A DNA stretch of 35,766 bases from Gemmatimonadota bacterium (GTDB taxonomy: Bacteria > Gemmatimonadota > Gemmatimonadetes > Gemmatimonadales > GWC2-71-9). Positions 4,750 through 28,560 of this stretch are shown piece after piece. Below the pieces are notes generated by a model that was not told the DNA's origin, made no database searches, and saw nothing but the letters and a program-made list of their open reading frames with translations. The translations under genes and the position numbers were made by a program. The stretch lies in the NCBI GenBank assembly GCA_036679565.1, contig JAZDDC010000124.1, forward strand, positions 1 to 35,766, given 5' to 3'. How positions within the stretch are numbered: position 1 is the first letter of the stretch; every line of letters starts with the position of its first letter.

Positions 4750-4755
4750 AGAGGC

Positions 4756-9496: not shown

Positions 9497-9785
9497 CAGT
9501 CAGCGCACTTTCTGAGTCCACCACAATATTGACGACTTCCGTATCCGCCGGTAGGCGCAGACCGAGCGACTCGGCACGCGGGATCAAACGTTCTCGGCTG
9601 CTGCTCCGACTGATCCGTCGCAAAAGATCATTTCGTGTTGATTGGAGCACACGACGTTCTTCCTGCAATGTGCGTAGTTCGGTTGCAGCAACCACAGAAG
9701 AAGTTTGACGCGCCGCCACAATCACCAACACACCAAAGAAAAACACAAGCCACACACTGACCCAAAACCGACCGCGGACCTTCAT
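9483..9785 (-). CDS. ftsL: Cell division protein FtsL-like (small bitopic coiled-coil protein)
   Basis: 100 aa with a single N-terminal TM (FWVSVWLVFFFGVLVIVAA) followed by a heptad-like region (LRTLQEERRVLQSTRNDLLRRI). It lies between rsmH and ftsI. Its start overlaps the rsmH stop by 4 nt and its stop overlaps the ftsI start by 14 nt. Confidence 0.7.
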   Translation of the reverse strand: MKVRGRFWVSVWLVFFFGVLVIVAARQTSSVVAATELRTLQEERRVLQSTRNDLLRRISRSSSRERLIPRAESLGLRLPADTEVVNIVVDSESALTDGRT

Positions 9786-13009: not shown

Positions 13010-13837
13010 TCAAGAAGTCGCGCCCGGTTCCTTCGGCACGATCCAGCTTTCATCGAGAGCTTCTTTGCGCGCACTGTTCACCTTTCGCCGGCGAAACCAC
13101 ACCAGTACCACCGCGCCACCCACCACACTCCAAAACATGCTAAACGACGTTGCCATGAGCAGCCAGCCATGACGGCTGCGGACATCCTTTCGCCACATCT
13201 CCTCAAACCCCTCCAAGGTGACATGGTATGTCGCACGAAGCGCTCCGTCAAAATCGCCGGTGACGCCGAGTCGGGTCACCAACGGTTCCAATCCGCGGTC
13301 TCCGCCGAGTCGTTCCAACATCAATACGGCGGACGTGGCAAACGCGTAAGCGGCGTTCGCGCGCGCCGCTCCCAGTCGCAATTCCCGGCTAATCCCTTCC
13401 AGGAGAGGGGCCCTACCCCGTACCAACGACCAATTGATTCGTAAGGCATCCAGACGTTTCCACTCTCCTGCAGCCCGACTGGCATACCCCTCGTCAAACC
13501 ATCTCGGTACAAACCGCACGTGACGGCGCAACGCGAGATGCGCCAGTTCGTGCACCAATACTTGATGCATGTCAGGCCCGAAAACGAGAACGATCGTGTT
13601 GGTTGCCGGAAACGCCGCACCGGCACCCCATCCGGGCAACCGGCCGCCTGTGACCGAATCGAAGACATGGGCACTGGGCGCGAGGACGAGCCGAATTCGG
13701 TAGTCCGACGGGTCCGTGAGACCAGGCCATTGATGCTCGGCGTCGGCCATCCGGGCCAGAGCCGCCGCAGGACCGGCATGTTGCGGCCAGTAGACGGCTG
13801 TCACTCGGCCGACTTGAACAGTCTGCGGTCCCTGCAT
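13010..13837 (-). CDS. Putative zinc metallopeptidase (HExxH, peptidase MA-like) with a C-terminal membrane anchor
   Basis: 275 aa. HELAH zinc motif followed by a downstream WFDEGYA glutamate (gluzincin-type third ligand). C-terminal TM helix MATSFSMFWSVVGGAVVLVWF followed by RRRK. It starts 23 nt after the preceding TPR gene. Confidence 0.7.
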   Translation of the reverse strand: MQGPQTVQVGRVTAVYWPQHAGPAAALARMADAEHQWPGLTDPSDYRIRLVLAPSAHVFDSVTGGRLPGWGAGAAFPATNTIVLVFGPDMHQVLVHELAHLALRRHVRFVPRWFDEGYASRAAGEWKRLDALRINWSLVRGRAPLLEGISRELRLGAARANAAYAFATSAVLMLERLGGDRGLEPLVTRLGVTGDFDGALRATYHVTLEGFEEMWRKDVRSRHGWLLMATSFSMFWSVVGGAVVLVWFRRRKVNSARKEALDESWIVPKEPGATS

Positions 13838-13860
13838 GAGGAGGGCGACAAAAAGGGTTG

Positions 13861-14718
13861 TTACGACAGGTCAGGCTCCTGACCATCGGAGATCGATTGG
13901 AGCGTTTCCTTGCATCTTTCTCCCCATGGGCTAAACGCGTTGGCGCTGACACCGCGTTGCCAGGCGTCCTGTGCACCTTCGCGGTTGTTGGAGAGCCATT
14001 TCGCTTTACCCAAGTGGTAAAAGGCCTCGATCATCATGGGTGCGCGTTCAATAGCCTTGTCGAAGAACGTCTCCGCATCTTCGAACATCTCGCGCTCGAA
14101 ATACACCAAACCAAGATAAAAGTGCGCATACAACGTTGCCTTCTGATCGTTGTCGAGTCGGATGGCCTTTGACAAATGTTCGATAGCTTCGCCAAAGATT
14201 CGTTTCTTGAGGCAAATATACCCCACATTCACACGAGCCATCGAGTTGGCCGGTTCCTTCAACAACACTTGTTGAAACGTAGCAAGTGCTTCGTCGTGGT
14301 CACCGTTTTTCATTTGCGCAGAGCCGAGTTGCGTTTCAGCCTTCACGTCTCCGGGTGACAACTCTAGCGCCTTTTTGGTTGCTTGAATCGCGCCTGCGAA
14401 GTCACCGAGGTTCATCAGGTTCCAACCCTTCTCGATGAACGTGGACGCGCCAAGGTGATCGGCGACCATGGGACTGGCAGACGGCGGTTGTGCATCACCA
14501 TCGTCCGTTTCTGCCAATTCCTTGTACTCATCCACCAACACACGGATGTGTTCCTTAAATTCCGTGAGGTCATCAATGCGTTGATCGACGCCCTTGAAAA
14601 GCGCGACGATATCTTGTTTGACTTCCGCGCGCTCGGCACCTTTTGGCTTGGCTTTTAGCCGTCCGGCAATTCGTTTGTATTGACTGCGGAGTTCCGCGAT
14701 TTCCGATTGTTCATTCAT
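13861..14718 (-). CDS. Coiled-coil plus TPR repeat protein (last gene of the Che/MglA locus)
   Basis: I chose the ATG at 14718 (MNEQSEIAELRSQYKRIAGRL...), which overlaps the cheW-like stop by 8 nt. The ORF-track extension to 14913 is Cys/Arg/Pro-rich and overlaps cheW. The N-terminal ~80 aa are charged and helical. The remainder is TPR-like (GDFAGAIQATKKALELSP, HDEALATFQQVLLKEP, FGEAIEHLSKAIRLD, FEDAETFFDKAIERAP). Confidence 0.75.
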   Translation of the reverse strand: MNEQSEIAELRSQYKRIAGRLKAKPKGAERAEVKQDIVALFKGVDQRIDDLTEFKEHIRVLVDEYKELAETDDGDAQPPSASPMVADHLGASTFIEKGWNLMNLGDFAGAIQATKKALELSPGDVKAETQLGSAQMKNGDHDEALATFQQVLLKEPANSMARVNVGYICLKKRIFGEAIEHLSKAIRLDNDQKATLYAHFYLGLVYFEREMFEDAETFFDKAIERAPMMIEAFYHLGKAKWLSNNREGAQDAWQRGVSANAFSPWGERCKETLQSISDGQEPDLS

Positions 14719-15202
14719 CCAAGACTCCGATTTCGACCGAACGCAGGGACAGCAGTTCGGTGGACGCAATGAGTTTCGCAATGGCCAACACAATAATCGG
14801 CGCGGTCTGGTGCGCCACGATACCGGCGACGTAGTCGGCGGCAAGGCCACGCACAACCGGTGGCGGCACAGCGATGGCGTTTGCCGGCACGGTTTGCAAC
14901 GACAACGCGGCATCGACGATCAATCCTACGTTTCCAAAACCGCCGGTTACAACGACGACACGCAAATCGTCTCCCGACTGGGCCGATACGGCAAACCGCT
15001 TGCGGAGATCCAACACGGGGATCATTTCGTCACCGAAGGGCATCATGCCCTCGAAATAATCCGATGATTTGGGAAGGGCGGTGACCGGTTGGTACCGTAC
15101 CACACGCTCGACATCCAAGACGTTGAGTGCAAAAATCTGATCCGCCACCCGGAACGTCACAAGTTGGATCCTGTCAGCACCCGTATCACCCAAGGCGTTC
15201 AT
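14711..15202 (-). CDS. cheW: CheW-like coupling protein
   Basis: 163 aa. QLVTFRVADQIFALNVLDVERVV...ALPKSSDYFEGMMPFGDEMIPVLDLRKRF...VGLIVDA fits the CheW domain consensus. ATGA overlap with the preceding cheW-like gene. Confidence 0.85.
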   Translation of the reverse strand: MNALGDTGADRIQLVTFRVADQIFALNVLDVERVVRYQPVTALPKSSDYFEGMMPFGDEMIPVLDLRKRFAVSAQSGDDLRVVVVTGGFGNVGLIVDAALSLQTVPANAIAVPPPVVRGLAADYVAGIVAHQTAPIIVLAIAKLIASTELLSLRSVEIGVLDE

Positions 15203-15639
15203 GACGCCACCGCTTGCGTATCATCGAGTTGCGCAACGACCGAACGGGTATCGACAACGGGCAGCGCACGTCCTTCGTACGCACCGGCTCCCAGCAGCCA
15301 ACGGCTCCGTGTATCGTTGTGCAACTCGTCAGTAAGGACTATCACCTCCAACACGTCATCCACCTCGAGCGCGACAGGTGTGTTGGCGGATTGAATGACA
15401 ACGACGGTCGTACTGCCGGCGCTTTCGGTTCCATCGGAAGCCACGATACGCGACAACGGGACGACCGCCACCACACCGCGTTCGTAACGCACCACGCCAC
15501 GGACAGACGGGGCAACACCCGGGACCGGTGTGATTACCACGTTGTCAAGCACTTCGATCACGTCGCGCACCGGCAGCCCGTACGGACGACCACCCACCAA
15601 GACGACCAGTACACTCGCACCGCGTAACGTTTGTTGCAT
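15199..15639 (-). CDS. cheW: CheW-like coupling protein (divergent)
   Basis: 146 aa. VLVVLVGGRPYGLPVRDVIEVL....TPVPGVAPSVRGVVRYERGVVAVVPL...VALEVDDVLEV fits the CheW domain pattern. It starts 1 nt after the PATAN-TPR stop. Confidence 0.8.
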   Translation of the reverse strand: MQQTLRGASVLVVLVGGRPYGLPVRDVIEVLDNVVITPVPGVAPSVRGVVRYERGVVAVVPLSRIVASDGTESAGSTTVVVIQSANTPVALEVDDVLEVIVLTDELHNDTRSRWLLGAGAYEGRALPVVDTRSVVAQLDDTQAVAS

Positions 15640-15640
15640 C

Positions 15641-17263
15641 TCAACCTCGTAACGCGTTCATGGTTTCGAGATTCGTTCTGGCAAGCTGATGCTGGGGATT
15701 TCGGCGTAACGTCTGTTCCCACATATATGCTGCCCGATCTTGATCCCGATTCTTATACGCGATATTGCCGAGCTTGAAATACACGTCATCGCCTAACTCC
15801 GGATCGATCTCAACGGCACGTTCGTAGGACTCCCACGCGTCTTCAAAACGCCCGTGGCGATAAAGAATATCGCCCAAATTTTTTGAAAGCTGTGGCAGGA
15901 CCAAACCCTCAGAAATTGCGGCTCGCAACTCATTCTCCGCTTGTTCCAGTTCCCCACGCAGTTCGAGAATCACCGCAAAGTTGTTTCGTAACACGGCACT
16001 GCGCGGATACAGTTTCAGACCTTCGTTTGCGTATTCCTCCGCCGTAACGAGATCATTGCGAGCGGCATGTGACAAACACATGGCCCAATACCAAATCTCA
16101 CTGAGCCGTCTTTCCCCCGCGGCTTCCTTCGCTGACTGCAGTCGGGTCTCAGCGACTTCAAATTTGCGTTGTCGTAACGCGATGGCGCCCCAACCTGTCA
16201 GGAACCGGGGGTCGGTACCACCGTTGGATGCCGCCTCACCGTAGGTCGTTTCCGCCTCATCAAATTTGCCGAGCTGTTCTAAACAAAAGGCGACATTGTA
16301 CTTCACCGCCGATGAGTCACCGCCAAGCGCTAGCACGCGTTGGAAAACTTCGAGCGCGTCATGCCATTCTTGGCGTTGCAGGCTTACCAGTCCGAGGTGA
16401 AAATGGGCTTCGGCGGCTTTGGGATCGAGATCGACGACGCGGCGAAACTCACGGGCGGCTTCATCGAGCATACCGGTTCGGTAAAACGCTACACCAAGAT
16501 TTCGGTGTTCTTCGATCTTCGCGTCCGTGGCCACCGTTTTGGTTGCCGTTTCGCTCACGCGAGAACGATGCACAAACCCAGCGGTAATCAGACCGTAAAG
16601 CGCCTTGCCCACGTCGAATTCACTCAAACCCGCGCGCTCGACAATCGTGGCGACTGAACGATCTCCATCAATCAGTGGGATGATGATCCGCTGAGGTTCA
16701 GTCAGTTCCACATCGGAGTTTTCCAAACGCGACCGATCAAGCGTAAATACCAAATCGAACGACGTTATCTTTTTCTCAATGAGACTCCACTCGTCAATGC
16801 GGCGGGCGCCTTCCAGCAGTAACGTTTCCGGGTTGATCGACAACAGAAAATCCTGTCGTTCCGGCCGGATATCGACTTCAAAATGAAAACTGCCACGTGT
16901 CCACGTGAAGAGGTGATAAATGGCTTCCTCAACCTGAACTCGCATGTAACGTTCCAACTCGTCGGATGAAATGGCGTCCAACTCAACAAGGATCTCACCG
17001 AGCTTCTTATCCCGATCAGAATCTTGTTGCGCGACGGCGTCATCGAGCTGCTCTTTGTTGACCTTGCCGCTGTTGAGCAGGATATCGCCGAGGCGGTCAC
17101 GTCTGTTGACGATGGCGGCGTACGTAATGCGACCTTGGTCAAAGTAGACGTATCCAAGGTTTGTGCGGTCAGTCAACGAAAGGCAACCGGTCTTTTGCCC
17201 CAAGGAAAGAAGTTGAAGCACGTCGGGTAGCGAAGCCTCCTTAAGGCTTCCTTTGATGGCCAT
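15641..17263 (-). CDS. PATAN (DUF4388) domain plus TPR repeat protein
   Basis: 540 aa. The N-terminus GSLKEASLPDVLQLLSLGQKTGCLSL...VYFDQGRITYA matches the PATAN/DUF4388 signature. There is a conserved EGARRIDEWS segment, and the C-terminal half is TPR (e.g. LDEAAREFRRVVDLDP, WHDALEVFQRVLAL, FDEAETTYGEA, FEDAWESYERAVEIDP). Its start shares 1 nt with the upstream stop (TGATG). Confidence 0.85.
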   Translation of the reverse strand: MAIKGSLKEASLPDVLQLLSLGQKTGCLSLTDRTNLGYVYFDQGRITYAAIVNRRDRLGDILLNSGKVNKEQLDDAVAQQDSDRDKKLGEILVELDAISSDELERYMRVQVEEAIYHLFTWTRGSFHFEVDIRPERQDFLLSINPETLLLEGARRIDEWSLIEKKITSFDLVFTLDRSRLENSDVELTEPQRIIIPLIDGDRSVATIVERAGLSEFDVGKALYGLITAGFVHRSRVSETATKTVATDAKIEEHRNLGVAFYRTGMLDEAAREFRRVVDLDPKAAEAHFHLGLVSLQRQEWHDALEVFQRVLALGGDSSAVKYNVAFCLEQLGKFDEAETTYGEAASNGGTDPRFLTGWGAIALRQRKFEVAETRLQSAKEAAGERRLSEIWYWAMCLSHAARNDLVTAEEYANEGLKLYPRSAVLRNNFAVILELRGELEQAENELRAAISEGLVLPQLSKNLGDILYRHGRFEDAWESYERAVEIDPELGDDVYFKLGNIAYKNRDQDRAAYMWEQTLRRNPQHQLARTNLETMNALRG

Positions 17264-19218
17264 CAGCCCATTTCCCCTATTATGTAGTCAACCGGATCGG
17301 GCCATTTCCACACGACTTTTTCTGCGGTTTCAATCCCACCGGACGGAGACATCACCACACCACTCGGCCGACCACGTGCAACGGCCGCAGACTCCCGCAA
17401 TGCCGTTGCACCCACAACGTCCTTGGCAGACTCTAACGTTGGTGTCTGACCACGCGCGTCGGCAGATGTGATTACCCGTTGCCCGAGTGCCAAGACTGAC
17501 CGCACGGATTCGGCACGTTGATCGGCCAGGTAATCGACCACGGCTTCCTCCACCGGATCTGTGATACGTTCCTCAAATTGACGGGTCAGGACCATCTTGC
17601 GAAGCTCGTAGTCGGGCGACTTGAGCGTTGCAAGCAACCCTCCCTCCAACCGGGAAACCAGACGATCGTCCAGACCTCGAATCTCGCGGGGACGACGAGA
17701 AGACGTGAACACGAGTTGTCGTTCGGATTCCAACAAGACGTTGAACAAGAAGAAAATCTCTTCTTGTATCCGGTCTTGACCTCCGATGAGGTCGACATTG
17801 TCCAGTAAAAACGCAGACGCCCGTCGATAGCGTGCTCGCCATGAGGGTACGCGATTCTCGTCAATGGCCGTTACAAGCTCGTCCATGAACACTTGGGCCG
17901 ATGTACATGCAATCCAACCACGGTCCGGAAGCTCCAAGCCCCGGCCAATCCCGTGGAGGAGATGTGTTTTCCCCACACCCGACGGACCGATAATCACGAG
18001 CGGATTGTATTGCGTGCCTGGTGCGGCCAAAACCGATTCTGCCGCACTCAAGGCCATCTTTGTCGATCGACTGCGGAGAAATGTATTGATCGAGAAAGAT
18101 CTTGATGGCCCGGGTGGCGGTTCAAAATCTTCCTGCGCGCGTTTGACCACAAGACGGGCCTCTTCGACACGCTCCGGGTCACGAAAGACCGGATCACCGG
18201 CACGCTCCGGGTTACACTCGGCAACGGCGGTTTGCAACTCGAGCAACTCCGTCACGGCGTCTTCGTAGCGATTCACGGCATCGGCAGCCTCGGCGGCGAC
18301 ACCGCCGTCCAGAGCCCGTTCTAGCCGCGCCGTGTTGTAACCACGCCGGGACCAACGATCGACTACATCGCGGAGATTTTGTTGCCACACATCGACCTGT
18401 TCGGTCACGGCCGCTGTCACCCCGCTCAAAAAAGCGCCGAACTCATCCGCCGACCCAAAGACGTCACTGGATCGACTGAGCGCTAATGCCTCGTCCGCAT
18501 CGCCGCCACTCAAGACGGCCCTTCCCGCCGCGAGTGTCAACGGGACATCACTCACCGTTTGAAACGCAATGATACGATTCAGATTGCCAAGTAATTCTCT
18601 GACATTTTCCGTGTCGCGTTCGGCGATCATCGCAAGAAGCTCGGCACCCAGTTCCGCACCTCGCTCGTAGGCACGTTGGCGCAGAATGGCCAATCGGTTG
18701 TCGAAATTGGGCGGTGCGATGTCCACCACGAGACCGCCATCGATCTTCTTCAACATGCGGTCGTCGAGTTCGGACAATTCGGGAGGCGGTTGATCGCTTG
18801 TGAGCACGACTTGAACGCCGGCATCTGCCAGATCTGCGACGAAACGCAAAAGCTCGTCCTGTACCTCCGGCCGCCGGGCAACGAACTGGACGTCGTCGAT
18901 CAAAACGAGATCGGACGTCAGGTACCGCTCGCGGAAGGACTCGAGCAATTGCTGACTTTCCGCGGCGCGGTACGCCTCCATGAAGTCATCGAGTGTCAGA
19001 TAGTGCACCACACGGTTCGGATCCACCGACAACGTTTCATGACCAACGGCCATCAGCAGATGTGTCTTCCCAAGTCCCGTGCCACTGTGCATGAACAGCG
19101 GGTTGTGCACCGACCCGGGGTGTTCGGCGACAGCATGGGCAGCGGTGACGGCGACACGGTTGCCATCTCCGATCACAAACGTATCAAACGTATAGCGTGG
19201 ATTGAACGCCGAACTCAT
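17263..19218 (-). CDS. Tandem double DnaA/Hda-type AAA+ ATPase, no DNA-binding domain IV
   Basis: 651 aa. Module 1 has [36 protein letters not shown] (Walker A), LVLIDDVQF (Walker B), VVLTSDQPP and [10 protein letters not shown]. Module 2 has [61 protein letters not shown] and ESVRSVL. Both copy DnaA domain III almost motif for motif. There is no DnaA N-terminal domain and no C-terminal HTH signature. The start overlaps the mglA stop (ATGA). Confidence 0.9.
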
Positions 19219-19814
19219 CCGGGCGGCGCCTCGCTCAGCTTCCTCAATACCATTTCTGAAATCGCCTTCAGGGTCTCAAAAACACCGGTGCCACCCAACG
19301 CGTCCGCGCCTATGTGGGGCACTCCGCGAAAATTTAACGCCTCATTCAGTTCGTCCGCCGTGAGGATCAACTCCTTTGGCAGACCCTGTTTGTTGTACTG
19401 GAAAACAATCGGCAATGTTCGCACGTCAACACCTTGCGCCAACAAATTCTCCTGAAGATTCTGCAAGCTTGCGAGATTTTCATCTAGCTGTCTGGCCTGG
19501 CTGTCCGCGACGAACACCACACCGTCGGCCCCCTGAAGCACCAGCTTTCGAGTGGCATTGTAGTATACCTGCCCTGGCACAGTGTACAATTGAAACCGCG
19601 TCGTGAAACCAGAAATTTTGCCGAGTTCCAAGGGGAGGAAATCAAAAAACAACGTCCGGTCCGATTGTGTTGCCAGAGAGACCATGCGCCCCCGCCGCGC
19701 CTCGGGCACCTTTTCGTATACGTACTGTAAATTTGTCGTTTTGCCGGAACGACCGGGTCCGTAGTACACGATTTTACACGTGATTTCACGCGTCGTGAAA
19801 TTGATTAGCGACAT
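19215..19814 (-). CDS. mglA: Ras-like polarity GTPase MglA
   Basis: I chose the ATG at 19814. [36 protein letters not shown]...[48 protein letters not shown]... is collinear and highly similar to Myxococcus and Thermus MglA as I recall them. The G4 motif reads NKQG instead of NKxD. Confidence 0.95.
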
Positions 19815-19815
19815 A

Positions 19816-20286
19816 TCAATCCTGAAAGAGCGAGGCGAGACTCTGGTTGAGTTCGCGCTCGAAGTCAGCCGCCAACACGGGCTCGGATGACACCGGCGCC
19901 GGATTGGCTTCATTCAATTCGTTGACGAACTCCTCAAAAAATAGGTGAACTAAACCCAAAGAGGATTCGCGCCCGTAAATGACGAGCAACACCATCGGTC
20001 CGGAAGGGCTTTCGAACGCCGACAAGAACACGCCGTGGGTTGGCCCCTGATGGTTTAACATCGAAAATGACGGTTCGCGAAGCATCTTCGTGATTTCCGC
20101 CGTTGACGACACGATGGCCGCGCCGAGCGCAGCCGCCGCCATGACGTCCACCGCCCGTGTGAAACCATGTTGCGCAAACACTTGGCCTGTTGGGTTCATC
20201 AGGAGAGCCAACCGCGCTCCGGATTCGGATATGAACATCTCCATGGGTTTCTCAGCCCACGGGTGCACCGCACGGACCCCGCTCAC
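19816..20286 (-). CDS. mglB: Roadblock/LC7 protein MglB (MglA GTPase-activating protein)
   Basis: 156 aa, immediately upstream of mglA with a 1-nt gap. It has the Roadblock pattern (...[14 protein letters not shown]...[28 protein letters not shown]) and an acidic/hydrophobic C-terminal tail ending LASLFQD, as in Myxococcus MglB (..TSLGLVRLRIKKASDEL.. / ..IDNLFSE). The GTG start overlaps the upstream stop (GTGA). Confidence 0.85.
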
Positions 20287-20633
20287 GCAAAAACCTCACC
20301 GGCGCGCAGCATCTCCAACCTCACCAGACCCACGTTCGTGTTGGTATCCGTAACAATGACTACAAGGACATCTTGATTTGTGGCCAAGACCAAAACCGCG
20401 CCCTCGGTGCATTGCATGTGAAGAAACCTGGGTTCGCCAGCCTTTGCGGTGCCCGAGACCCAGGTGAATTTACCAAACACACTAGCAGCGAGGGCGGCGA
20501 GAGCCTTTCCGCGCACGCCTTCCATCAAAGTCTCGGCGATGACCAACCCGTCGTCTCGGGCTACAAACATTGCCCCTTGGACACCACGGACCCGTGTCAA
20601 AACATCGAGCACTCCCTGTAACTGGTGTGTCAC
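20283..20633 (-). CDS. Roadblock/LC7 domain protein (MglB/MglC-like paralog)
   Basis: 116 aa. LDVLTRVRGVQGAMFVARDDGLVIAE....ALAALAASVFG...VLVLATNQDVLVVIVTDTNTNVGLVRLEM fits the Roadblock/LC7 consensus. GTGA overlaps at both ends. Confidence 0.8.
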   Translation of the reverse strand: MTHQLQGVLDVLTRVRGVQGAMFVARDDGLVIAETLMEGVRGKALAALAASVFGKFTWVSGTAKAGEPRFLHMQCTEGAVLVLATNQDVLVVIVTDTNTNVGLVRLEMLRAGEVFA

Positions 20634-21400
20634 GGGCGTTGTCCCTCCAACCAGCCACGGGCCGCGTCATTTGCTTTTTGCGCGAGAAAGGCCAGTCTCC
20701 CCGGCGGTACACTCCGATCTCGCATGGTGACAAGGCATGTTTCATTGGTTGGTTGCGTGAGATGAACATTTTGACTCGCCGACTCCGCGATAAGCCATTC
20801 CCATTTGCCCAGATCCAAGAGACGGGCCGTTCGTTCGGCCTCTCGCACAAGAGCGGCCACCCGCGCGGCCATTTCATCTGTGTTCGCGTTACCACCCAGA
20901 CGACCTGCCAGTACACGACCGGCGTCATCGACAAGTAACAGCCCGTGTTCGGCTCCCTCCAAACCTGCAAAGATATTCGGCTCCTCGTCGTCCTCTTCGA
21001 TCGTACGCGCCGTGGTACGAACCAGCTGAAACGCCTGTAATACGCTTTGATCGGTAGGATCAACGGCCAACGCTGTCTCGAGGTGCTCGAGCGCGGCATC
21101 GAGGTCGCCGCGCGAATAATAAAGGAAACCCAATCCCTTATGGGCGCCTTGATGCCGTGCGTCGCGCTGAAGGACCGTCTCCCAGACATGACGAGCTTCA
21201 TCGGGACGAGAAGCATCGAGTAAGAGTCGTGCGTACAGGTCCCTGGCCGCCGGCAGATCGGGATAACGTTCAAGACCGGACAATGCAACCGCGGTGGCGG
21301 ATTCCAGATCACCCTTGCGCCGCAACCCCTCACCCAATCTGAGAAATACAAGGCTGTCCGGATCACGCGCAAACTCCCGCGCCAGTGCTTGGATGTCCAC
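20630..21400 (-). CDS. TPR (N-terminal) plus Roadblock/LC7-like (C-terminal) fusion protein
   Basis: 256 aa. The N-terminal ~130 aa are TPR-like (LESATAVALSGLERYPD, PDEARHVWETVLQRDA, LDAALEHLETALAVDP), followed by an acidic linker (EEDDEE). The C-terminus GLLLVDDAGRVLAGRLGG....AARVAALVREAERTARLLDLGKWEWLIAES...CLVTMRDRSVPPGRLAFLAQKA has the Roadblock pattern. That domain call is by eye only. Confidence 0.65.
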   Translation of the reverse strand: MDIQALAREFARDPDSLVFLRLGEGLRRKGDLESATAVALSGLERYPDLPAARDLYARLLLDASRPDEARHVWETVLQRDARHQGAHKGLGFLYYSRGDLDAALEHLETALAVDPTDQSVLQAFQLVRTTARTIEEDDEEPNIFAGLEGAEHGLLLVDDAGRVLAGRLGGNANTDEMAARVAALVREAERTARLLDLGKWEWLIAESASQNVHLTQPTNETCLVTMRDRSVPPGRLAFLAQKANDAARGWLEGQRP

Positions 21401-21408
21401 GATCGAGA

Positions 21409-22551
21409 TCAGGCCTTGAGAAACGCGTCTAGCGTCTGCGCAGCCTTGATAGCGCTCTGCACATGCTCGGTCGTGGCGTCTTCTGCATCAGTTTCTTCAT
21501 TGAGTTGCAACCAATGACCCCACCACGCGCTAGCCTCTTTCAGCCGGCCCTGACGGGCGAGGGCGTCACCCAGGAGTCGATGACCGAGTGCCATGGAGGA
21601 ATCCAATCTGAGGGCGCGGCGCAACGTCTCCTCGGCGTCTTCGGCGCGTTCGGCAGCCAGATGTACACGCCCCATGGTCAACAGGAGTCGTGCGTCGTGT
21701 GGCTGATCAGAGAGTGCCATTTCGATCACAGAACGTGCGCCCTCGAGGTCTCTTTCGCGCAGTGCACCCTCGGCCTCGGCAATTCTTTGATCGGTGGTGT
21801 CTTCTTCGATGATAACGGGGTGGCTACTTGAGCGCCGTGCAAGGATGGTGACGATGCCGGCACTCTCCATGCCAAAGATCGTTCGCGCCACATCGAATTC
21901 CGACTTACTCAACGACTTTGCAATCCCTCTCACGTCGCGCAACCCATCGATCATCGCGAGTAGCTCCCACTCCGTTGGCAACAGATCGAGTTCGCCTTCT
22001 TCGCCGGCAACTGCCGCCGTCAGCGCCGGCACGACGCCCACGTGTGGAATTTTGCGTTCCATCCGCGACCACTCATCGATCCGCCGCGCACCCTCCATAA
22101 GCAATGCTTCAGTCCTGATGCGTGTCGATGCGTCCCCCGGGACTGATTGATCGTCTTCTTCGAAGGAGAAATAACCTTCGTGCCAACTCATCATCTCGAA
22201 GATTACTTCTTCCACTTGAAAACGAACTTGCCGCTCCAGCTCCCCCGCCGTGATCGCTCCGACGGAGATCAAGATTTCTCCGATCTTTCGAGAGTCACCA
22301 TGTTCTTGTTGGGTCCGTGCCTGTCGTAGATCGGCCTCGGCGACCTTCCCCGACCGCACAAGAAGCTCTCCCAACGGATGAGGGTTGCTACGGATCTCGG
22401 CATAAATCACCGACCCCGATTGTAGCCACACCGCACCCTGGTTGCGTCGGAGTTGGGAGGTTACCCGTAGGACACCAGTTTTCTTGCTCAAATCGAGCAG
22501 TTGAAAAACGTCGTGAATTCCGAGTTCCTTGAGCGGGCCCTCGATAGCCAT
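21409..22551 (-). CDS. PATAN (DUF4388) domain plus TPR repeat protein (paralog of 15641..17263)
   Basis: I chose the ATG at 22551, 1 nt after the upstream stop. MAIEGPLKELGIHDVFQLLDLSKKTGVLRV...VWLQSGSVIYA is the PATAN signature. It shares the EGARRIDEWS segment and the xIDGxR..xxIA....SEFDV middle region with the other paralog. The C-terminus is TPR. Confidence 0.85.
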   Translation of the reverse strand: MAIEGPLKELGIHDVFQLLDLSKKTGVLRVTSQLRRNQGAVWLQSGSVIYAEIRSNPHPLGELLVRSGKVAEADLRQARTQQEHGDSRKIGEILISVGAITAGELERQVRFQVEEVIFEMMSWHEGYFSFEEDDQSVPGDASTRIRTEALLMEGARRIDEWSRMERKIPHVGVVPALTAAVAGEEGELDLLPTEWELLAMIDGLRDVRGIAKSLSKSEFDVARTIFGMESAGIVTILARRSSSHPVIIEEDTTDQRIAEAEGALRERDLEGARSVIEMALSDQPHDARLLLTMGRVHLAAERAEDAEETLRRALRLDSSMALGHRLLGDALARQGRLKEASAWWGHWLQLNEETDAEDATTEHVQSAIKAAQTLDAFLKA

Positions 22552-22552
22552 C

Positions 22553-25234
22553 CTACGCTGCCTCGGTCCGAAAAATGTGACTGAGTTCGTCCGCGGATCG
22601 CAGGTGCCGGCGAGCCGAAGCCGCACGTGGACCGGACGGATCAAGACTCACGACACGTGTCCATGCGGCGGCCGCCTCACTGTATCGCCGCAACTTAGCC
22701 TGCGCCAAGCCCAGAAAATAATAGGCATCCACCTGACTCACCTCAAATGCCAACACGCGTTGAAACGCACTGGCCGCTTCGACAAATCTGCCATCGGCCA
22801 ACAGAGCCTCGCCCAACGCCAACATGGCCTGAATGTTCGTGGGGTTTCCGCGTACCAAATCCGCCAGCAGGTTGACCGCGCTCCGCGCAGCCCCCTGGCG
22901 GACACAAAGCCTCGCGAGCGGCAATGCCGCCTCAGACGACCCGGGTTCTGCATCCAACGCCGCACGGTAGGCGGCCTCGGCGGCGGCCAAGTCGTTACGT
23001 GCTTCATGTAATTCGCCGAGTTCCACGAGCAACGTCAATAATTTTGGGTCAAGTGTCAGCGCACCCTCGTAGGCCTTCAGAGCGCGCTCGTAGTTGCCAA
23101 GGTCAACGGCAATGGCTCCCTCAACCTTCAAGATGTCGGCACGTTGCGGTGCGCGCTTGTGCGCACGTTCAAGCACCTCCAGCGCGCTTGCGGGGTCCTT
23201 ATTGGCAAGTAACGCTTCGGCGAAAACGAGGAGCACGTCCGCGTCACCAGCGTGTTTATCCGCCCACTCTTTGGCCATATCGAGCGCTTCGCGGTTTTTC
23301 CCGGTGGCCAAGAGTGCTCGGATTTCACTAATTCCCAACGGAAGACGTTCTGGCCGGGACCGGCGCGCCTCGCGGAAACGTTCGAGAGCTTCGCCGTGCA
23401 GGCCGCGACGCGTAAAGATGCCTCCCAACAGGGCCTGGCCCTCACCGGGATCCGCACCCCGCACCAATGCGCGATTTGCCTCGGCAGCGGCCAGATCATA
23501 AAGACCCTTGCTGATATAATCACGTGCCAATCCGAAGGCATCATCGACGGGTTTCGACACCGTTGCGTCGGTTGACGCGCTCAGTTCCGAAAAAACATCC
23601 TCCAAGACCTTAGGATCGAAATCGAACTCCGCTGTGCCATCGGTGGATATATCCGCCGAAATCTCCGGAACCACCGTTATCGACGGATCCTCCAACTGAA
23701 GTTCGATCGAAAGTTGGAATTTTTGCGGAACGTAGTACGGGTCGATGTTTTGTGCGCGTGTCACGGCACGCAATGCCGCGTCGTAGTCGCCAAGCGCGGA
23801 CAGCGAGAAACTGAGATTGTAATGGGCTTCCGCTGAGTTCGGCTCGCTTTCGACGGCGCGGACAAACGCATTGCGGGCGTCTTCCTGTTGGCCAAGTTCG
23901 GCCATCACCAACCCAAGACCGTTCCACGCCGGGGCGCTGGACGCATTTCGTTCGATAACTTGCCGATAGGTCTGGGCGGCCACTTTCAATCGTCCGGAAC
24001 TCAATAACAACTTCCCCAAGTTGAGCACGGGCCGTTCCAGTTCTGGTCGCGAAAGCATGGCCTGGCGAAACGCAGACAGCGCTTCCGCATTTTTACCATC
24101 ATGCGCCAACGTCACCGCGAGATTGTTACTGGCCAGCGCGTAGTGCTCGTCATGATGCAACGCTTCTCGGTACGACTGCAACGCGTCTGTGTAACGACCG
24201 AGTTGATGTAATACGACGCCTCGTTCGTTCCAGAGCTTTGGCCGATCCGGCATTTCACGAAGCAAAGAATCGTACAGGTCGAGTGCGGCGGCATAATCTC
24301 GTTTGAGCGAGCTAACCTCCGCGATGGCTTCGATCACATGCCGGCGATCCTCACCATGGTCGAGTGCCAAACGAAATTCCCGCAGCGCGTCCGTCAGATA
24401 ACCTTGAGAACGGAACGCGACACCGAGGTTGTAGTGAGCCATGGGATCAGGATCCGATGGCACGCCCTCGTCGCCACCTGGAATCTCATATGCCGCATTG
24501 GATCGATCGCCGACGTAGGGTTCCAACGAGAGGTTGGTTTGCACGCGGCCAAATGACGGATTCAGACGTATCGCCTGGTTTGTTGCTTCGCGTGCTTCCT
24601 CATGCCGTCCTGAGTCGCCCAAGAGAAACGCAATCAGATAATGTGCTTCGGCGTTGTCGGGATTCAGCGTGACCGACCGCTCGAGTGAGCGCAGTGCCTC
24701 CTTTTTTGCGCCTTGATTGTACAGCACCTCACCGCGGTAAAAATGTCCAACCGTGCTTTCCGGGTCGATCTCCACGGCACGGTCGAACCACTCCACGGCA
24801 TCGTCCAAATTTCCCCGCCGCTTTTCGGCGAGCCCACTCTGTGTTACCGCAGCAACGTCATCCGGATTGAGTTCCAAGATGGATTGGAATTGCGCGATCG
24901 CGAGGTCAAACTGATTGAGGGAGGCGTACGCACGCCCAAGTTCCCATTGCGACTCACGTTCTGCCGGATCGTCACGAAGACGCTCTTGCAGTTGCGCCAC
25001 CCGCCGGTCGTAGAAACCGGTTTCTTCGTACGCGATTTCGAGGTTGCGTTGCGCCACGCGCATTTTGGGATCCAACTCGATGGCGCTACGAAATTCCTCG
25101 ATGGCCTCATCAATCAGACCCTTCCGAAAATACAACACGCCCAAGTTGTTGTGGGCGCCGGGATCTGACGGATCGATTCGTCTCGCGAAGGAGCGGAGAG
25201 TTTCTTTCTCAGCTTCAGATAGTGCTGCGGGCAC
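22553..25234 (-). CDS. Large (893-aa) TPR repeat protein
   Basis: There are continuous 34-residue TPR-like repeats across nearly the whole length (e.g. HNNLGVLYFRKGLIDEAIEEFRSAIELDP, QWELGRAYASLNQFDLAIAQFQSILELNP, AHYNLSFSLSALGDYDAALRAVTRAQNIDP). GTG start 2 nt after the cheC stop. The stop is 1 nt before the PATAN gene. Confidence 0.85.
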   Translation of the reverse strand: MPAALSEAEKETLRSFARRIDPSDPGAHNNLGVLYFRKGLIDEAIEEFRSAIELDPKMRVAQRNLEIAYEETGFYDRRVAQLQERLRDDPAERESQWELGRAYASLNQFDLAIAQFQSILELNPDDVAAVTQSGLAEKRRGNLDDAVEWFDRAVEIDPESTVGHFYRGEVLYNQGAKKEALRSLERSVTLNPDNAEAHYLIAFLLGDSGRHEEAREATNQAIRLNPSFGRVQTNLSLEPYVGDRSNAAYEIPGGDEGVPSDPDPMAHYNLGVAFRSQGYLTDALREFRLALDHGEDRRHVIEAIAEVSSLKRDYAAALDLYDSLLREMPDRPKLWNERGVVLHQLGRYTDALQSYREALHHDEHYALASNNLAVTLAHDGKNAEALSAFRQAMLSRPELERPVLNLGKLLLSSGRLKVAAQTYRQVIERNASSAPAWNGLGLVMAELGQQEDARNAFVRAVESEPNSAEAHYNLSFSLSALGDYDAALRAVTRAQNIDPYYVPQKFQLSIELQLEDPSITVVPEISADISTDGTAEFDFDPKVLEDVFSELSASTDATVSKPVDDAFGLARDYISKGLYDLAAAEANRALVRGADPGEGQALLGGIFTRRGLHGEALERFREARRSRPERLPLGISEIRALLATGKNREALDMAKEWADKHAGDADVLLVFAEALLANKDPASALEVLERAHKRAPQRADILKVEGAIAVDLGNYERALKAYEGALTLDPKLLTLLVELGELHEARNDLAAAEAAYRAALDAEPGSSEAALPLARLCVRQGAARSAVNLLADLVRGNPTNIQAMLALGEALLADGRFVEAASAFQRVLAFEVSQVDAYYFLGLAQAKLRRYSEAAAAWTRVVSLDPSGPRAASARRHLRSADELSHIFRTEAA

Positions 25235-25236
25235 GG

Positions 25237-25923
25237 TCAGTTCACGCGTATTGCATCAAAGATCGCCTGTAACGATGGCCCATCCGGCAAGAGGAGAAAG
25301 TGTCCCAAAAGACGTTGCTCAGCCTCTCGAAAGAAAAACTCCGTCTCGACACACAGGATCGTGTCGTGCTCGTCGGTGGGTTCGGCCAACGCCGATTTCA
25401 ACACCACCCCCGCCTCGTCCGCCACCAACGTCGGTACGGATGGAAGCAACATCATTCCCATGAAATCGGATAACGCATTGAGGTACGCCCCACCCAGGAT
25501 ATTTCCTGCCTCCTTGAGACTGGACTCCTCCAGTTCATTGAACGATGTGGTGGAGCCCGGTTCTTTTCGCATCAGCAGATCGCACAAAAGTCGCGCATCC
25601 GCGTCCGGCAACAAAAGAAGTGTCCGTCCGGTCAGATCACCCAGCATATGCATGAAAACGGCTATGACCCGTCCCGACGGGTCACCGAGCAAACCGGCGG
25701 CATCTTCGTACCGCGTCACGTTGATCTCGGGAATCGAAATCATGATGCTGCGGTCGGTCATTTGTGACAATGCCGTCGCCGCATGGCCGGCGCCAATATT
25801 TGCTACCTCACGCAGCGCATCGAGCTGCAGTGCCTTGAGACTTCGCACAGCGGACATCATGTCTTCCTCCTCAGACATCAGTCGTGTCGCTGTCGTAGCG
25901 ACCGAAAACCTACGACAAATCAA
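25237..25923 (-). CDS. cheC: CheC-family CheY-P phosphatase
   Basis: It has two CheC active-site ExxN motifs in the typical context (LDALREVANIGAGHAATALSQM and SSLKEAGNILGGAYLNALSDF). The start is uncertain: either the TTG at 25923 (TTGA overlap with the cheA stop) or the ATG at 25878. Confidence 0.85.
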   Translation of the reverse strand: MICRRFSVATTATRLMSEEEDMMSAVRSLKALQLDALREVANIGAGHAATALSQMTDRSIMISIPEINVTRYEDAAGLLGDPSGRVIAVFMHMLGDLTGRTLLLLPDADARLLCDLLMRKEPGSTTSFNELEESSLKEAGNILGGAYLNALSDFMGMMLLPSVPTLVADEAGVVLKSALAEPTDEHDTILCVETEFFFREAEQRLLGHFLLLPDGPSLQAIFDAIRVN

Positions 25924-27767
25924 ACCAGGCGAGCAGCGTCCAGAATGAGGACGGGTTCTCCCTCTCCAAGTACCGTGGCTCCACCAAAAAACGGCGCCGT
26001 CCCACGAGGCATATCGAACGCCCGAGCGACAATGTCTCGTTGCCCGACGACACGATCCACCACAAGTCCGGTCCGCCGCTCACCTACCTGCACGATGATA
26101 ACCGGCTGGCGGGTTGGGCCCGTCCCATCCAACTGCACAAGATCGCGTAACCGCGAGAGCGGAACCGTGCCATGCCTCACGGTAAGCCTGTCGGTCTCGC
26201 CATCGCGAGTTGTCGAACGCGCATCGAGATCAACCGTTTCGGCCACATGTGTGAGCGGAATGGCATACCGTTCACTTCCCACCTCCGCTATCAACGCAGG
26301 CAAGATGGCCAGTGTCGGCGGAAGTCGAAGCGTAAAAACTGTGCCTCGACCTACCTCAGACTCCATATCCAACGACCCTCCAATGCTCCGGAGGCGGGTC
26401 ATGACCACATCAATCCCCACTCCACGACCGGAAAGATCCGATACACTCGAGGCGGTGGAGAAGCCAGGCTGGGCCAAAAGCTCTAAAAGCTCTTCAGTCT
26501 TCAAGTTATCGGCATTTTGGCCCGGGATCTGGCGTTCCCTGGCTTTTCTCAGGATACGGTCCCGATCGACCCCCCGGCCATCGTCCCGCACCCGAATCAC
26601 GATCATGGCCCGCTCCCGGTGCGCCGAGAGCGTAATCCGACCGGCCGCCGGTTTTCCGCTGGCCACCCGTTCTTCAGGTGTTTCAATGCCGTGGTCTATG
26701 GCATTCCGCAATAGATGTAGCAACGGATCGCTCAGCTCATCCAGAATCGCGCGGTCCAACTCGATCTCACGACCCTCAATAGCGAGGACCACTTGCTTCC
26801 CATGCTCACGGGCGGCATCCCTGACACCACGCGGGAACCTGTCAAAAACCTGAGACACAGGCGCCATGCGAGCCTGAATAACTTCGTGTTGGAGCCCCTC
26901 GACCAGGTGCGAAACCTTCCGAGTCATGGCCTCCAACGTGGGATCAGAACGTCCTGCGGCCAACTCAATCAACCCGGCTTTGGCGGTCGTGAGTTCTCCC
27001 ACGAGCTTCATAATCGCGTCCAGCCGCCGCAGATCGACCCGCACGTGACGAGCGGCGGTCGACTCCTTGGTATCCGTTCCCGCTTCGGCAATCGTCACCG
27101 ACTCGACGTCGCCGGCTCCCCTGATCAACTCCTCGATTTCCAGGTCTGACTGATCGGTCTGTAGTCCAAAGCTGAACCGACCGTCAAAGGCCTGTGTCTC
27201 CATGGATGTCTGTGGCGGAGAAACCGCCAGGACGTTTCCGAGTGCAGCCACACGCTGAAGCACCAGGGCCGCACGGGCCCCCCGTAACAACGCGTCCCTT
27301 CGGATCCGGACTTCCAGACGACGGGTGCCGGCTGGGGCCGTGGGTGGCGATTCCGGTGGTTGACTTTCCGTTTCCGCGTCCACCGGTTGGAACGAACCGG
27401 CAAAACTGTCGAGCGGGGCGATGGCCTGGTTTACATCAGTGGATTCGCGACCGTTTACGGCATCATCGATGGATTGCTCAAGTCGGTCCGCCGATTGGAA
27501 CAAAAGCTGAAGCAATTCCTGATCTGGCGGATCGGGAGACGCCCGCACCAGATCGAGCACATTCTCAATGGCATGAGACAAGCGCGCGACGCCACTGAAC
27601 CCCATGGTGGCAGACATGCCCTTGAGATTGTGGACCGCGCGGAAGATGGCATCGACGGACCCCGTGGCGTCAGGTCGCCCTTCCAGCACGAGGAGCTGAT
27701 TGTTGATGACCGCGAGATGTTCGCGGCTCTCGTCGAGAAAAAGATCCGCGTACTTCGCGGGGTCCAT
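25920..27767 (-). CDS. cheA: Chemotaxis histidine kinase CheA
   Basis: 615 aa. Hpt/P1 with the phospho-His context IFRAVHNLKGMSATMGF, a dimerisation region (RVDLRRLDAIMKLVGEL), an HATPase N-box HLLRNAIDHGIE, G1 DDGRGVD, G2 GRGVGIDVV, and a C-terminal CheW-like P5 domain. Confidence 0.95.
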   Translation of the reverse strand: MDPAKYADLFLDESREHLAVINNQLLVLEGRPDATGSVDAIFRAVHNLKGMSATMGFSGVARLSHAIENVLDLVRASPDPPDQELLQLLFQSADRLEQSIDDAVNGRESTDVNQAIAPLDSFAGSFQPVDAETESQPPESPPTAPAGTRRLEVRIRRDALLRGARAALVLQRVAALGNVLAVSPPQTSMETQAFDGRFSFGLQTDQSDLEIEELIRGAGDVESVTIAEAGTDTKESTAARHVRVDLRRLDAIMKLVGELTTAKAGLIELAAGRSDPTLEAMTRKVSHLVEGLQHEVIQARMAPVSQVFDRFPRGVRDAAREHGKQVVLAIEGREIELDRAILDELSDPLLHLLRNAIDHGIETPEERVASGKPAAGRITLSAHRERAMIVIRVRDDGRGVDRDRILRKARERQIPGQNADNLKTEELLELLAQPGFSTASSVSDLSGRGVGIDVVMTRLRSIGGSLDMESEVGRGTVFTLRLPPTLAILPALIAEVGSERYAIPLTHVAETVDLDARSTTRDGETDRLTVRHGTVPLSRLRDLVQLDGTGPTRQPVIIVQVGERRTGLVVDRVVGQRDIVARAFDMPRGTAPFFGGATVLGEGEPVLILDAARLV

Positions 27768-27769
27768 CG

Positions 27770-28132
27770 TTACGCGAGAACTCGCTGTACCGCTTCGAGC
27801 ACACGCGACGGTTGAAACGGCTTGACCACGAAATCCTTCGCACCAGCCTGGATGGCTTCAACCACCAGCGCCTGTTGGCCCATCGCGCTACACATGAGCA
27901 CCCGCGCGGACGGATCGATTTTCACGATCTCACGGACCGCATCAATCCCACCCATGTCGGGCATCACAATGTCCATTGTCACGAGGTCGGGCTTCAGCTC
28001 CGTGAATCGGTCGACGGCCTCCACACCGGTCTCGGCCTCTCCAATCACGTCGTAATCCGCCTGCCTCAGAATATCGCCAATCATGGTTCGCATGAAGATG
28101 GCGTCGTCACACACAAGAACGGTTTGGCTCAC
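27770..28132 (-). CDS. cheY: Single-domain response regulator CheY
   Basis: 120 aa. Acidic pocket VCDDA, phospho-acceptor VTMDIVMPDM, and conserved S/T (CSAMG) and K (VVKPF). GAGGAGG lies 4 nt upstream of the GTG start, which overlaps the cheW stop (GTGA). Confidence 0.95.
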   Translation of the reverse strand: MSQTVLVCDDAIFMRTMIGDILRQADYDVIGEAETGVEAVDRFTELKPDLVTMDIVMPDMGGIDAVREIVKIDPSARVLMCSAMGQQALVVEAIQAGAKDFVVKPFQPSRVLEAVQRVLA

Positions 28133-28560
28133 ACCACCTCCTCAGATGGCATCACGGCTGTTGACAATACTACTGGGTCCAAAACAGCGAAGGAGACCTC
28201 GTGATGGACGCCGATCCCACTTACAAACGGCGACCGGATTCCCGGTAAAGCCGCTCGCGGCGAAAAATCACCCTCACCAACCGTCACCATGTCCACCACC
28301 TCATCCACAGCCAGCCCAAACCGGTGTCGGTCCGCTTCCAGTAGCACAATGGAGTATCGGTCAGTGCTAGTGTTCTGCTGAAGAGCGGCACGTGCGTCTA
28401 TCAGTGTCATGAGTTCGCCACGGACGCTGACCAATCCACGCACGGGGGGGTTGGCCCCTGGAATACGGGTCACGGGCAGCACCGGCAAGACCTCCCGCAC
28501 GCAGTTCACCGGTACCGCGCACGTCAGTTCATCAACTTTGAAAACAAGAAACCGCGCGAT
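28129..28560 (-). CDS. cheW: CheW coupling protein (5' end uncertain)
   Basis: The ORF-track start (GTG at 28509) truncates the domain. The same frame upstream reads IARFLVFKVDELTCAVPV-NCVREVLPVLPVTRIPGANPPVRGLVSVRGELMTLID, which is the canonical CheW N-terminal strands. There is no ATG, GTG or TTG between the in-frame TAATAG at 28573..28578 and 28509. I placed the 5' boundary at the ATC at 28560 as a candidate non-canonical start. Confidence 0.8.
   Translation of the reverse strand: MARFLVFKVDELTCAVPVNCVREVLPVLPVTRIPGANPPVRGLVSVRGELMTLIDARAALQQNTSTDRYSIVLLEADRHRFGLAVDEVVDMVTVGEGDFSPRAALPGIRSPFVSGIGVHHEVSFAVLDPVVLSTAVMPSEEVV

Follow-up and report, generated by a model that had tools for sequence, protein, structure and literature searches.

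Gemmatimonadota encode, next to the gene for the small GTPase MglA, a protein built from two DnaA-type AAA+ modules. We describe it from a 35,766-nucleotide contig of a Gemmatimonadota bacterium (JAZDDC010000124.1 in GenBank assembly GCA_036679565.1), the whole of which is called the window below. The gene is an open reading frame on the minus strand (17263..19218) that encodes 651 amino acids (aa); we refer to it as the tandem gene and to its product as the tandem protein. Both halves of the protein are DnaA-type AAA+ modules, not modules of the Hda or DnaC/IstB type, and mglA lies directly upstream of the gene in all 74 related loci with upstream DNA. The identity of the protein and its linkage to mglA are much more certain than its mechanism, which is inferred. 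The reading we favour, to which we give about an even chance, is that the tandem protein serves a polarity module composed of MglA, MglB and PATAN-TPR proteins as an asymmetric scaffold or timer that is gated by ATP and independent of DNA.

Two DnaA-type AAA+ modules in one chain

The Pfam model Bac_DnaA (PF00308) matches the tandem protein in two stretches with E=2.8e-88. When the halves were scanned singly, module 1 scored 251 bits and module 2 scored 189 bits on the DnaA model TIGR00362, against 85 and 70 bits on the Hda model and lower values still for IstB. Over the tandem protein, the IstB/DnaC model PF01695 reached 55 bits compared with 295 bits for PF00308, and the NCBIfam matches to IstB and DnaC were far under their cut-offs. 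Against domain III of Bacillus subtilis DnaA (8bv3), module 1 aligned at E=1.3e-54 with 41% identity and module 2 at E=7.6e-36; the two modules of the window protein are 28% identical to each other (E=3e-29). They share with DnaA domain III (PF00308, TIGR00362; 8bv3, 2z4r, 1l8q) both the fold and a set of motifs, namely (N/F)P(R/K)(Y/F)TF, GxGKTHL, hhhhDD, the RxxxR of box VII and the sensor II Arg. An earlier note, made from the sequence alone, had read two copies of DnaA domain III in this frame; the scans of each half against the DnaA, Hda and IstB/DnaC models agree with it, and all ten motif strings that it quoted were found at their places by translation and alignment.

We modeled the tandem protein with AlphaFold using 40 relatives, obtaining a mean predicted local distance difference test (pLDDT) of 84 and a predicted template modeling score (pTM) of 0.52. 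The model comprises an AAA+ domain at aa ~5-236, a helical domain at aa 259-364, a second AAA+ domain at aa ~375-614 and, at aa 615-651, a tail predicted to be disordered. Foldseek paired the model with DnaA domain III structures, with a template modeling score (TM) of 0.92 to 8bv3, and returned no match resembling domain IV or a helix-turn-helix. Likewise, neither DnaA_N (PF11638) nor Bac_DnaA_C (PF08299) has a Pfam match in the tandem protein, which begins four residues ahead of the NP(R)YTF segment of domain III and thus lacks domains I and II. A regular expression search for the clamp-binding motif (QL[SDP]LF, QLxLxL or QL[SP]LPL) found none in the window protein, and there is no conserved site for it in 121 members of the family. 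We also considered a cryptic DNA-binding domain and rejected it: the best Foldseek hit of the linker alone had E=1.9, and a relaxed Pfam search (E<=10) of the linker and tail was empty. Since Foldseek, Pfam and the motif search gave no match, we conclude that the protein contains no cryptic DNA-binding or Hda-type element. In other words, the absence of domain I, domain IV and a clamp motif, and of any DNA-binding domain in the linker or tail, is as the earlier note had it.

These features set the protein apart from its nearest known counterparts. It is not an orthologue of DnaA: it has two modules per chain, neither domains I/II nor domain IV, and its gene lies in an mglA operon instead of at dnaA-dnaN. 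Because the helix-turn-helix of domain IV is missing, it would not be expected to bind DnaA boxes. It resembles Hda and HdaA in being a DnaA-like AAA+ protein with a conserved arginine finger and no DNA-binding domain. Hda, however, is a one-module protein that acts together with the sliding clamp and bears a clamp-binding motif at its N-terminus, whereas the tandem protein has two modules and no such motif, and its score on the Hda model TIGR03420 (148.5 bits) is under the cut-off of 194.8; it is not Hda. Nor is it a classical type II AAA+ protein. Those proteins (p97/Cdc48, NSF, ClpB) also carry two modules per polypeptide, commonly one with an active and one with a degenerate site, but the tandem modules match the DnaA model and not the classical AAA model, and a helical insert of ~140 aa separates them. 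Foldseek superpositions on p97-type structures were of a generic double-AAA kind, with a root-mean-square deviation above 22 Å and TM of ~0.23-0.29.

The whole protein scores 436.8 bits on TIGR00362, past the cut-off of 343.9, although neither module passes alone. Some relatives carry the label "DnaA/Hda family protein" or "hypothetical"; others bear the mistaken name "chromosomal replication initiator protein DnaA", which stands in many entries from the Joint Genome Institute (JGI). The misnaming arises because the two modules sum to a score past the cut-off.

To compare the two ATP sites we took a residue census over the 121 aligned family members. The Walker A lysine (K51 in module 1, K417 in module 2) and the sensor II arginine (R207 and R573) are invariant in both modules (121/121 in each case). 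In the Walker B motif, module 1 has D108 in 121/121 and D109 in 120/121; module 2 has D473 in 121/121, followed by Asp in 113 members and Asn in 8. The first arginine of box VII is R154 in module 1 (118/121) and R519 in module 2 (121/121). Two features depart from DnaA. The sensor I aspartate, D142 in module 1 (121/121), is lost in module 2, where the position is variable. The arginine finger is R523 in every copy of module 2 (121/121), whereas the corresponding position 158 of module 1 is Arg in 95 of the 121 members (Lys in the window), a loss of the finger in 21% of the family.

The module 1 pocket and the module 2 finger are thus strictly kept and the reciprocal pair is relaxed, from which we infer one composite catalytic site, in which the module 2 arginine finger would complete the module 1 pocket. 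The module 2 pocket would then be a nucleotide-binding, poorly hydrolysing site with a regulatory or structural part. An asymmetric pair had already been proposed in the earlier note on the basis of the Asn in Walker B of module 2 (N474). The asymmetry is still supported, through the loss of the sensor I Asp in module 2 and the variable finger of module 1, set against the invariant module 1 pocket and module 2 arginines. The Asn is not its key: the eight members that have it all belong to the window's own sub-clade, the rest read DD, and we reject it as a feature of the family.

Two further positions bear on nucleic-acid binding. A GKER(T/S)QEE segment is kept family-wide in module 2 (K in 107/121, R in 115/121; the window reads GQDRIQEE), and we take its residues to be the single-strand-binding K/R/T residues of DnaA; in the E. 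coli and A. aeolicus proteins this segment is reported to contact single-stranded DNA (Ozaki 2008; Duderstadt 2011). Where E. coli has R245 and A. aeolicus R190, module 1 always carries Glu. Separately, one relative (P0036) contains a 17-aa internal duplication, AGKERTQEELFNLFNLL, within module 2 (columns 522-538 of alignment A1), which may be a true micro-duplication or an error of assembly.

A recurrent helical repeat between the modules

The linker, in which the earlier note recognized no family, turns out to be a single copy of a helical repeat that recurs in other proteins. Folded alone, it is all-helical with a pLDDT of 86.5; Foldseek gives it no significant neighbour, a Pfam scan relaxed to E<=10 leaves it unmatched, and the repeat is without a Pfam model. 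Within the family, W289, G293, Y294 and T296 are conserved, and the domain ends in a FRDPxR...PPPGPS connector. With a linker profile as query, a search of 1.84 billion representative proteins yielded 435 at E<=1e-3, made up of the ~650-aa family itself and of large proteins with 3-22 tandem copies of a ~95-aa unit, whose motif is W-x2-EGY-x-V-x2-LE ... (R/K)DPD. For example, P0121 was matched in 22 stretches (E=7.5e-65) and P0122 in 11, and alignments of each repeat were obtained for locus L085. The repeat proteins reach 3143 aa and up to 22 matched copies (P0121-P0125, P0143 and P0150; L085 at 3424-7491 and 7513-10503). Their named sources include Thermoplasmata, Bathyarchaeia, Thermoproteota, Wallbacteria and Methylacidiphilaceae metagenome-assembled genomes (MAGs).

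The WxxEGY repeat recurs beside or fused to P-loop ATPases. Among the repeat proteins there are fusions to DUF835 and entries annotated as KaiC/RecA-like ATPases, and at least eight clusters combine an N-terminal domain, 4-8 repeats, one canonical-looking DnaA domain III and C-terminal zinc ribbons (examples are the L085 gene at 3424-7491, P0123, P0128, P0150 and P0281); the zinc ribbons were confirmed only in some of them, such as L085 and P0150. As in the tandem protein, the same ~95-aa unit stands directly N-terminal to a DnaA-type AAA+ domain and domain IV is absent. Unlike the tandem protein, these proteins have multiple repeats, a single AAA+ domain and an extra N-terminal domain, and they are not encoded beside mglA: no mglA, Roadblock or PATAN gene was found on the contigs of the proteins of this kind that we examined. 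In annotation they too go under the name "chromosomal replication initiator protein DnaA". A PATAN-like N-terminal domain, which would have linked them to the locus by gene fusion, was unsupported (hhalign E=0.043, probability 1.2%). To judge by these matches, the pairing of the WxxEGY repeat with a DnaA-type AAA+ domain is older and wider than the Gemmatimonadota protein.

This changes the picture of how the protein arose. The earlier note had supposed that a DnaA paralog was duplicated in tandem. The two DnaA-type modules are there, but outside Gemmatimonadota the repeat unit that forms the linker is joined to single DnaA domain III modules, and a simple in-place duplication with a random spacer therefore does not describe the architecture. 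We built a distance tree that included DnaA domain III sequences from three other phyla. Modules 1 and 2 form separate clades with broadly similar internal branching, and the repeat-linked modules are interspersed with canonical DnaA. On average, identity to DnaA is 40% for module 1, 34% for module 2 and 49% for the repeat-linked modules, and the two modules are 33% identical to each other. The branching of modules 1 and 2 fits a single ancient fusion and later co-evolution.

Beyond module 2, the C-terminal tail follows the pattern R-x-SG...S-x-EK-x-V-W-x-W-P...(I/V)E(E/D)xx-COOH and ends in an acidic C-terminus. E633, K634 and W639 never vary, and all but two of the 121 members (119/121) have W637. 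The EK-x-V-W-x-W portion is a plausible candidate for a short motif that docks on the TPR-rich neighbours.

A conserved locus around mglA

From the alignment of module 2 and the tail we drew peptide patterns specific to the family and ran them against GTDB, with each species represented by one genome. The scan gave 434 confirmed stretches, and the best 80 of the 434 are all Gemmatimonadota loci. A separate listing of related proteins contains more than 120 full-length relatives of 645-684 aa with 46-97% identity, and those that are named all come from Gemmatimonadota MAGs. The nearest public contig, JAZDDD010000466.1 (Gemmatimonadota bacterium TC87O_Bin_23), is 98% identical. Two of the 80 lie on short MAG contigs, DASWGQ010000203.1 (L037) and DATNBJ010000148.1 (L044), which are binned as Myxococcales and Thermoleophilaceae, respectively, and carry a complete Gemmatimonadota-type locus at 47% identity, a level usual for the family; this is probably binning contamination. 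Full-text literature searches found no published description of the tandem protein, in line with the earlier note, whose author knew of no protein of such architecture.

The genes of the locus are listed in Table 1. In 83 loci, wherever the contig reaches, the core runs in the order 893-aa TPR protein, PATAN-TPR 1, TPR-Roadblock protein, Roadblock protein, MglB, MglA, tandem gene, PATAN-TPR 2; after further genes it continues with a TPR protein, a peptidase-MA-like protein, another TPR protein and MraW. The linkage to mglA and mglB that the earlier note proposed is therefore general across relatives. Where a related locus extends beyond the tandem gene, the next gene downstream is PATAN-TPR 2. 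Both junction overlaps claimed in that note were read directly from the sequence: the mglA stop overlaps the start of the tandem gene by four nucleotides (RTGA in 73/74 related loci with upstream DNA), and the tandem-gene stop shares one nucleotide with the PATAN-TPR 2 start (75/82 related loci).

Table 1. Features of the tandem gene and of the surrounding polarity locus in the window
Feature	Position	Strand	Evidence or remark
Tandem DnaA-domain-III gene, whole, including stop	17263..19218	minus	PF00308 twice; P0001 97% identical; >120 full-length relatives
ATGA, mglA stop over tandem-gene start (translational coupling)	19215..19218	minus	Read from sequence; RTGA in 73/74 loci
Module 1, DnaA-type AAA+, complete ATP pocket (aa 5-236)	18511..19206	minus	TIGR00362 251 bits; 8bv3 E=1.3e-54
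Helical WxxEGY domain (aa 256-374), one ~95-aa repeat unit	18097..18453	minus	pLDDT 86.5, all-helical
Module 2, DnaA-type AAA+ (aa 375-614)	17377..18096	minus	TIGR00362 189 bits; 8bv3 E=7.6e-36
C-terminal tail (aa 615-651), conserved linear motif	17266..17376	minus	Predicted disordered, pLDDT <50
TGATG, tandem-gene stop sharing 1 base with PATAN-TPR 2 ATG	17261..17265	minus	1-nucleotide overlap in 75/82 loci
PATAN (DUF4388)-TPR 2, coupled to tandem gene	15641..17263	minus	PF14332 E=7.9e-38
mglA, 199 aa from internal ATG	19215..19814	minus	E=4.7e-73 to M. xanthus 6hjh; E=1.4e-65 to T. thermophilus MglA
mglB orthologue, 156-aa Roadblock protein	19816..20286	minus	E=3e-8 to M. xanthus 6h5b; matches T. 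thermophilus MglB
Second Roadblock/LC7 protein, 116 aa	20283..20633	minus	PF03259 E=1.4e-11; best PDB match a generic Roadblock
TPR-Roadblock fusion	20630..21400	minus	TPR and PF03259; kept in all loci reaching far enough upstream
PATAN (DUF4388)-TPR 1	21409..22644	minus	PF14332 E=3e-32
893-aa all-TPR protein, first core gene	22553..25234	minus	Kept in all loci reaching far enough upstream
Accessory che block upstream: cheC/X, cheA, cheY, cheW	25237..28509	minus	
cheW genes, accessory	15199-15639, 14711-15202	minus	
TPR gene, conserved core	13861-14913	minus	

Two start codons in the core probably differ from those of the longest frames. The mechanical mglA frame (19215-19913) has 232 aa, whereas relatives and solved MglA structures begin at an internal Met (MSLINF...) at 19814, one base past the mglB stop codon; the true start is most likely this internal ATG. 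Similarly, PATAN-TPR 1 probably starts at the MAIEG... Met near 22551.

In all loci that reach far enough, the polarity block has rluD on one side and, on the other, the mraW end of the division and cell wall (dcw) cluster. In the window the cluster (9782-35004) is set between divIVA-...-ileS-lspA-rluD and mraW-ftsI-mur, on one strand throughout. The FtsI-type penicillin-binding protein of this dcw cluster (7565-9496, minus strand) carries a C-terminal PASTA domain at aa 584-635; this domain is better known from Gram-positive penicillin-binding proteins and kinases.

The che genes are the variable part of the locus. In most relatives cheR-cheD-cheB lies between PATAN-TPR 2 and cheW (for example, L001 at 13569-15947, compared with 13861-17263 in the window), and the window and its closest relative, L004, are without these three genes. 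Five loci (L023, L036, L049, L067 and L069) keep the core with no che gene matched by our probes; in the first four of these the 893-aa TPR gene directly follows RluD. The che genes are dispensable, and by linkage the partner of the tandem protein is the MglA/MglB/Roadblock/PATAN-TPR core. Of the "GTPase/Che polarity module" in which the earlier note placed the protein, the linkage to the MglA core stands and the Che system falls away.

The helical inserts of both PATAN proteins contain two tandem RLGxxL(L/V)xxGxIxxxxLxxAxxxQ-like motifs, which resemble the cyclic di-GMP-binding motifs of MshEN, and match NF053729 (MshE-related cyclic di-GMP-binding) at 50 bits against a cut-off of 38. Judging from these motifs, the MglA module may take cyclic di-GMP as an input.

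With the MglA/MglB systems of Myxococcus xanthus and Thermus thermophilus and the MglA-TPR-RomR hub of Bdellovibrio the locus shares a bona fide MglA (E=4.7e-73) and MglB, and its extra Roadblock paralogues recall M. xanthus MglC. To our knowledge no AAA+ ATPase is part of any MglA module described so far. Also unlike the known MglA systems, no receiver domain of the response-regulator kind was matched in the core proteins scanned against Pfam. TPR partners and PATAN neighbours like those of the locus were noted by Wuichet and Søgaard-Andersen (PMC4316618), whose survey of prokaryotic small GTPases reports PATAN genes near some mglA genes. Its Table S2 has, under locus GAU_1409, the entry "PATAN>MglA>-PATAN>" for Gemmatimonas aurantiaca T-27, which thus appears to have the tandem-gene locus; on our reading, if the dash stands for an unclassified gene, the tandem gene sits exactly there and was overlooked. 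The same table lists G. aurantiaca MglA at 229 aa, probably through the same over-extended start.

A proposed scaffold or timer for the MglA module, weighed against its rivals

We favour the reading that the tandem protein serves as an ATP-gated scaffold or timer. It would be a fixed, stoichiometrically co-produced subunit of the Gemmatimonadota MglA/MglB-Roadblock-PATAN/TPR polarity module. Since both AAA+ faces are kept (R154 in module 1; Walker A and sensor II in module 2), the ATP-bound protein would probably stack head-to-tail in the manner of DnaA, giving dimers at the least, or short helical oligomers. The WxxEGY domain and the aromatic, acidic tail would present docking sites for MglA, for the TPR proteins of the operon, or for both, and the binding and hydrolysis of ATP would control when the polarity complex assembles and how long it lasts, with no action on DNA. 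Several observations weigh on the other side. The pairing of finger and pocket is deduced from conservation alone, and the full-length model has a pTM of only 0.52. The DnaA-like GKER(T/S)QEE segment is kept family-wide in module 2, which makes nucleic-acid binding by that module possible. Outside Gemmatimonadota, the relatives that join the repeat to a DnaA domain III do not adjoin mglA, so the function of the AAA+/repeat unit does not intrinsically need MglA.

The protein might instead regulate replication in the manner of Hda, with one module, most plausibly module 2, docking on the AAA+ domain of canonical DnaA-ATP and modulating its hydrolysis or oligomerisation; replication initiation would then be coupled to MglA-dependent polarity or division. 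The link to replication or the cell cycle, which the earlier note had also raised, is speculative. The far higher scores of both modules on the DnaA model than on those of other AAA+ families fit this, as do the mean identity of module 1 to DnaA domain III from other phyla, the invariance of R519 and R523, and the constant placement of the locus, which is flanked by rluD and by the dcw cluster at its mraW end and in the window also has divIVA upstream. We nevertheless judge it unlikely, given that the search for a clamp-binding motif came back empty, that the Hda score is below the cut-off, that expression is coupled to mglA and PATAN-TPR instead of dnaA or dnaN, and that a fifth of the members (21%) have lost the module 1 finger. 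Rather less plausible is a nucleic-acid-dependent assembly, a DnaA-like filament on single-stranded DNA or RNA formed chiefly through module 2, for which the nucleoid or a nucleic acid would be the matrix that positions the MglA module. There is no domain IV to anchor such a filament on duplex DNA and nucleate it, the invariant Glu of module 1 occupies the R245/R190 position, and the conserved core holds no nucleic-acid-related gene. What speaks for it is the retention of GKER(T/S)QEE in module 2, together with the match of both modules to PF00308 and TIGR00362, from which a DnaA-type fold is expected; that fold supports helical, not ring, assemblies.

A place for the protein in a Che array, as an ATPase adaptor between CheA/CheW and MglA, is very hard to credit. 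The che genes (cheA, cheY, cheC/X and cheW) do flank the core in the window and most relatives, but we reject the idea because the five loci without a che match keep the full core; besides, cheR, cheD and cheB are missing from the window and L004, and no gene for a methyl-accepting chemotaxis protein was seen among the window's open reading frames scanned against Pfam. We also entertain, as a long shot, a further reading. A DnaA paralogue would have become a DNA-free, ATP-gated polymer or switch that contacts both MglA and the initiator DnaA-ATP, the latter through AAA+ contacts via the invariant arginine finger. On this view the wider pairing of DnaA domain III with the WxxEGY repeat would be an ancient unit that bacteria, and perhaps archaea, have put to use again and again. 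If that were true, a single Gemmatimonadota protein would couple the status of replication initiation to polarity or division.

For annotation, the family is a trap: on its account, Gemmatimonadota genomes can seem to hold an extra or wrong dnaA. On the scaffold or timer reading, the AAA+ module of the replication initiator has been re-used away from DNA. The analysis also brings to light an unnamed repeat that recurs beside ATPases of the DnaA and KaiC/RecA types, in archaea as well as bacteria. Polarity control by a small GTPase with a step driven by ATP would be new, and here the AAA+ gene is fixed phylum-wide between mglA and PATAN-TPR. Gemmatimonas aurantiaca T-27 is in culture, so the polarity hypothesis is probably testable there.

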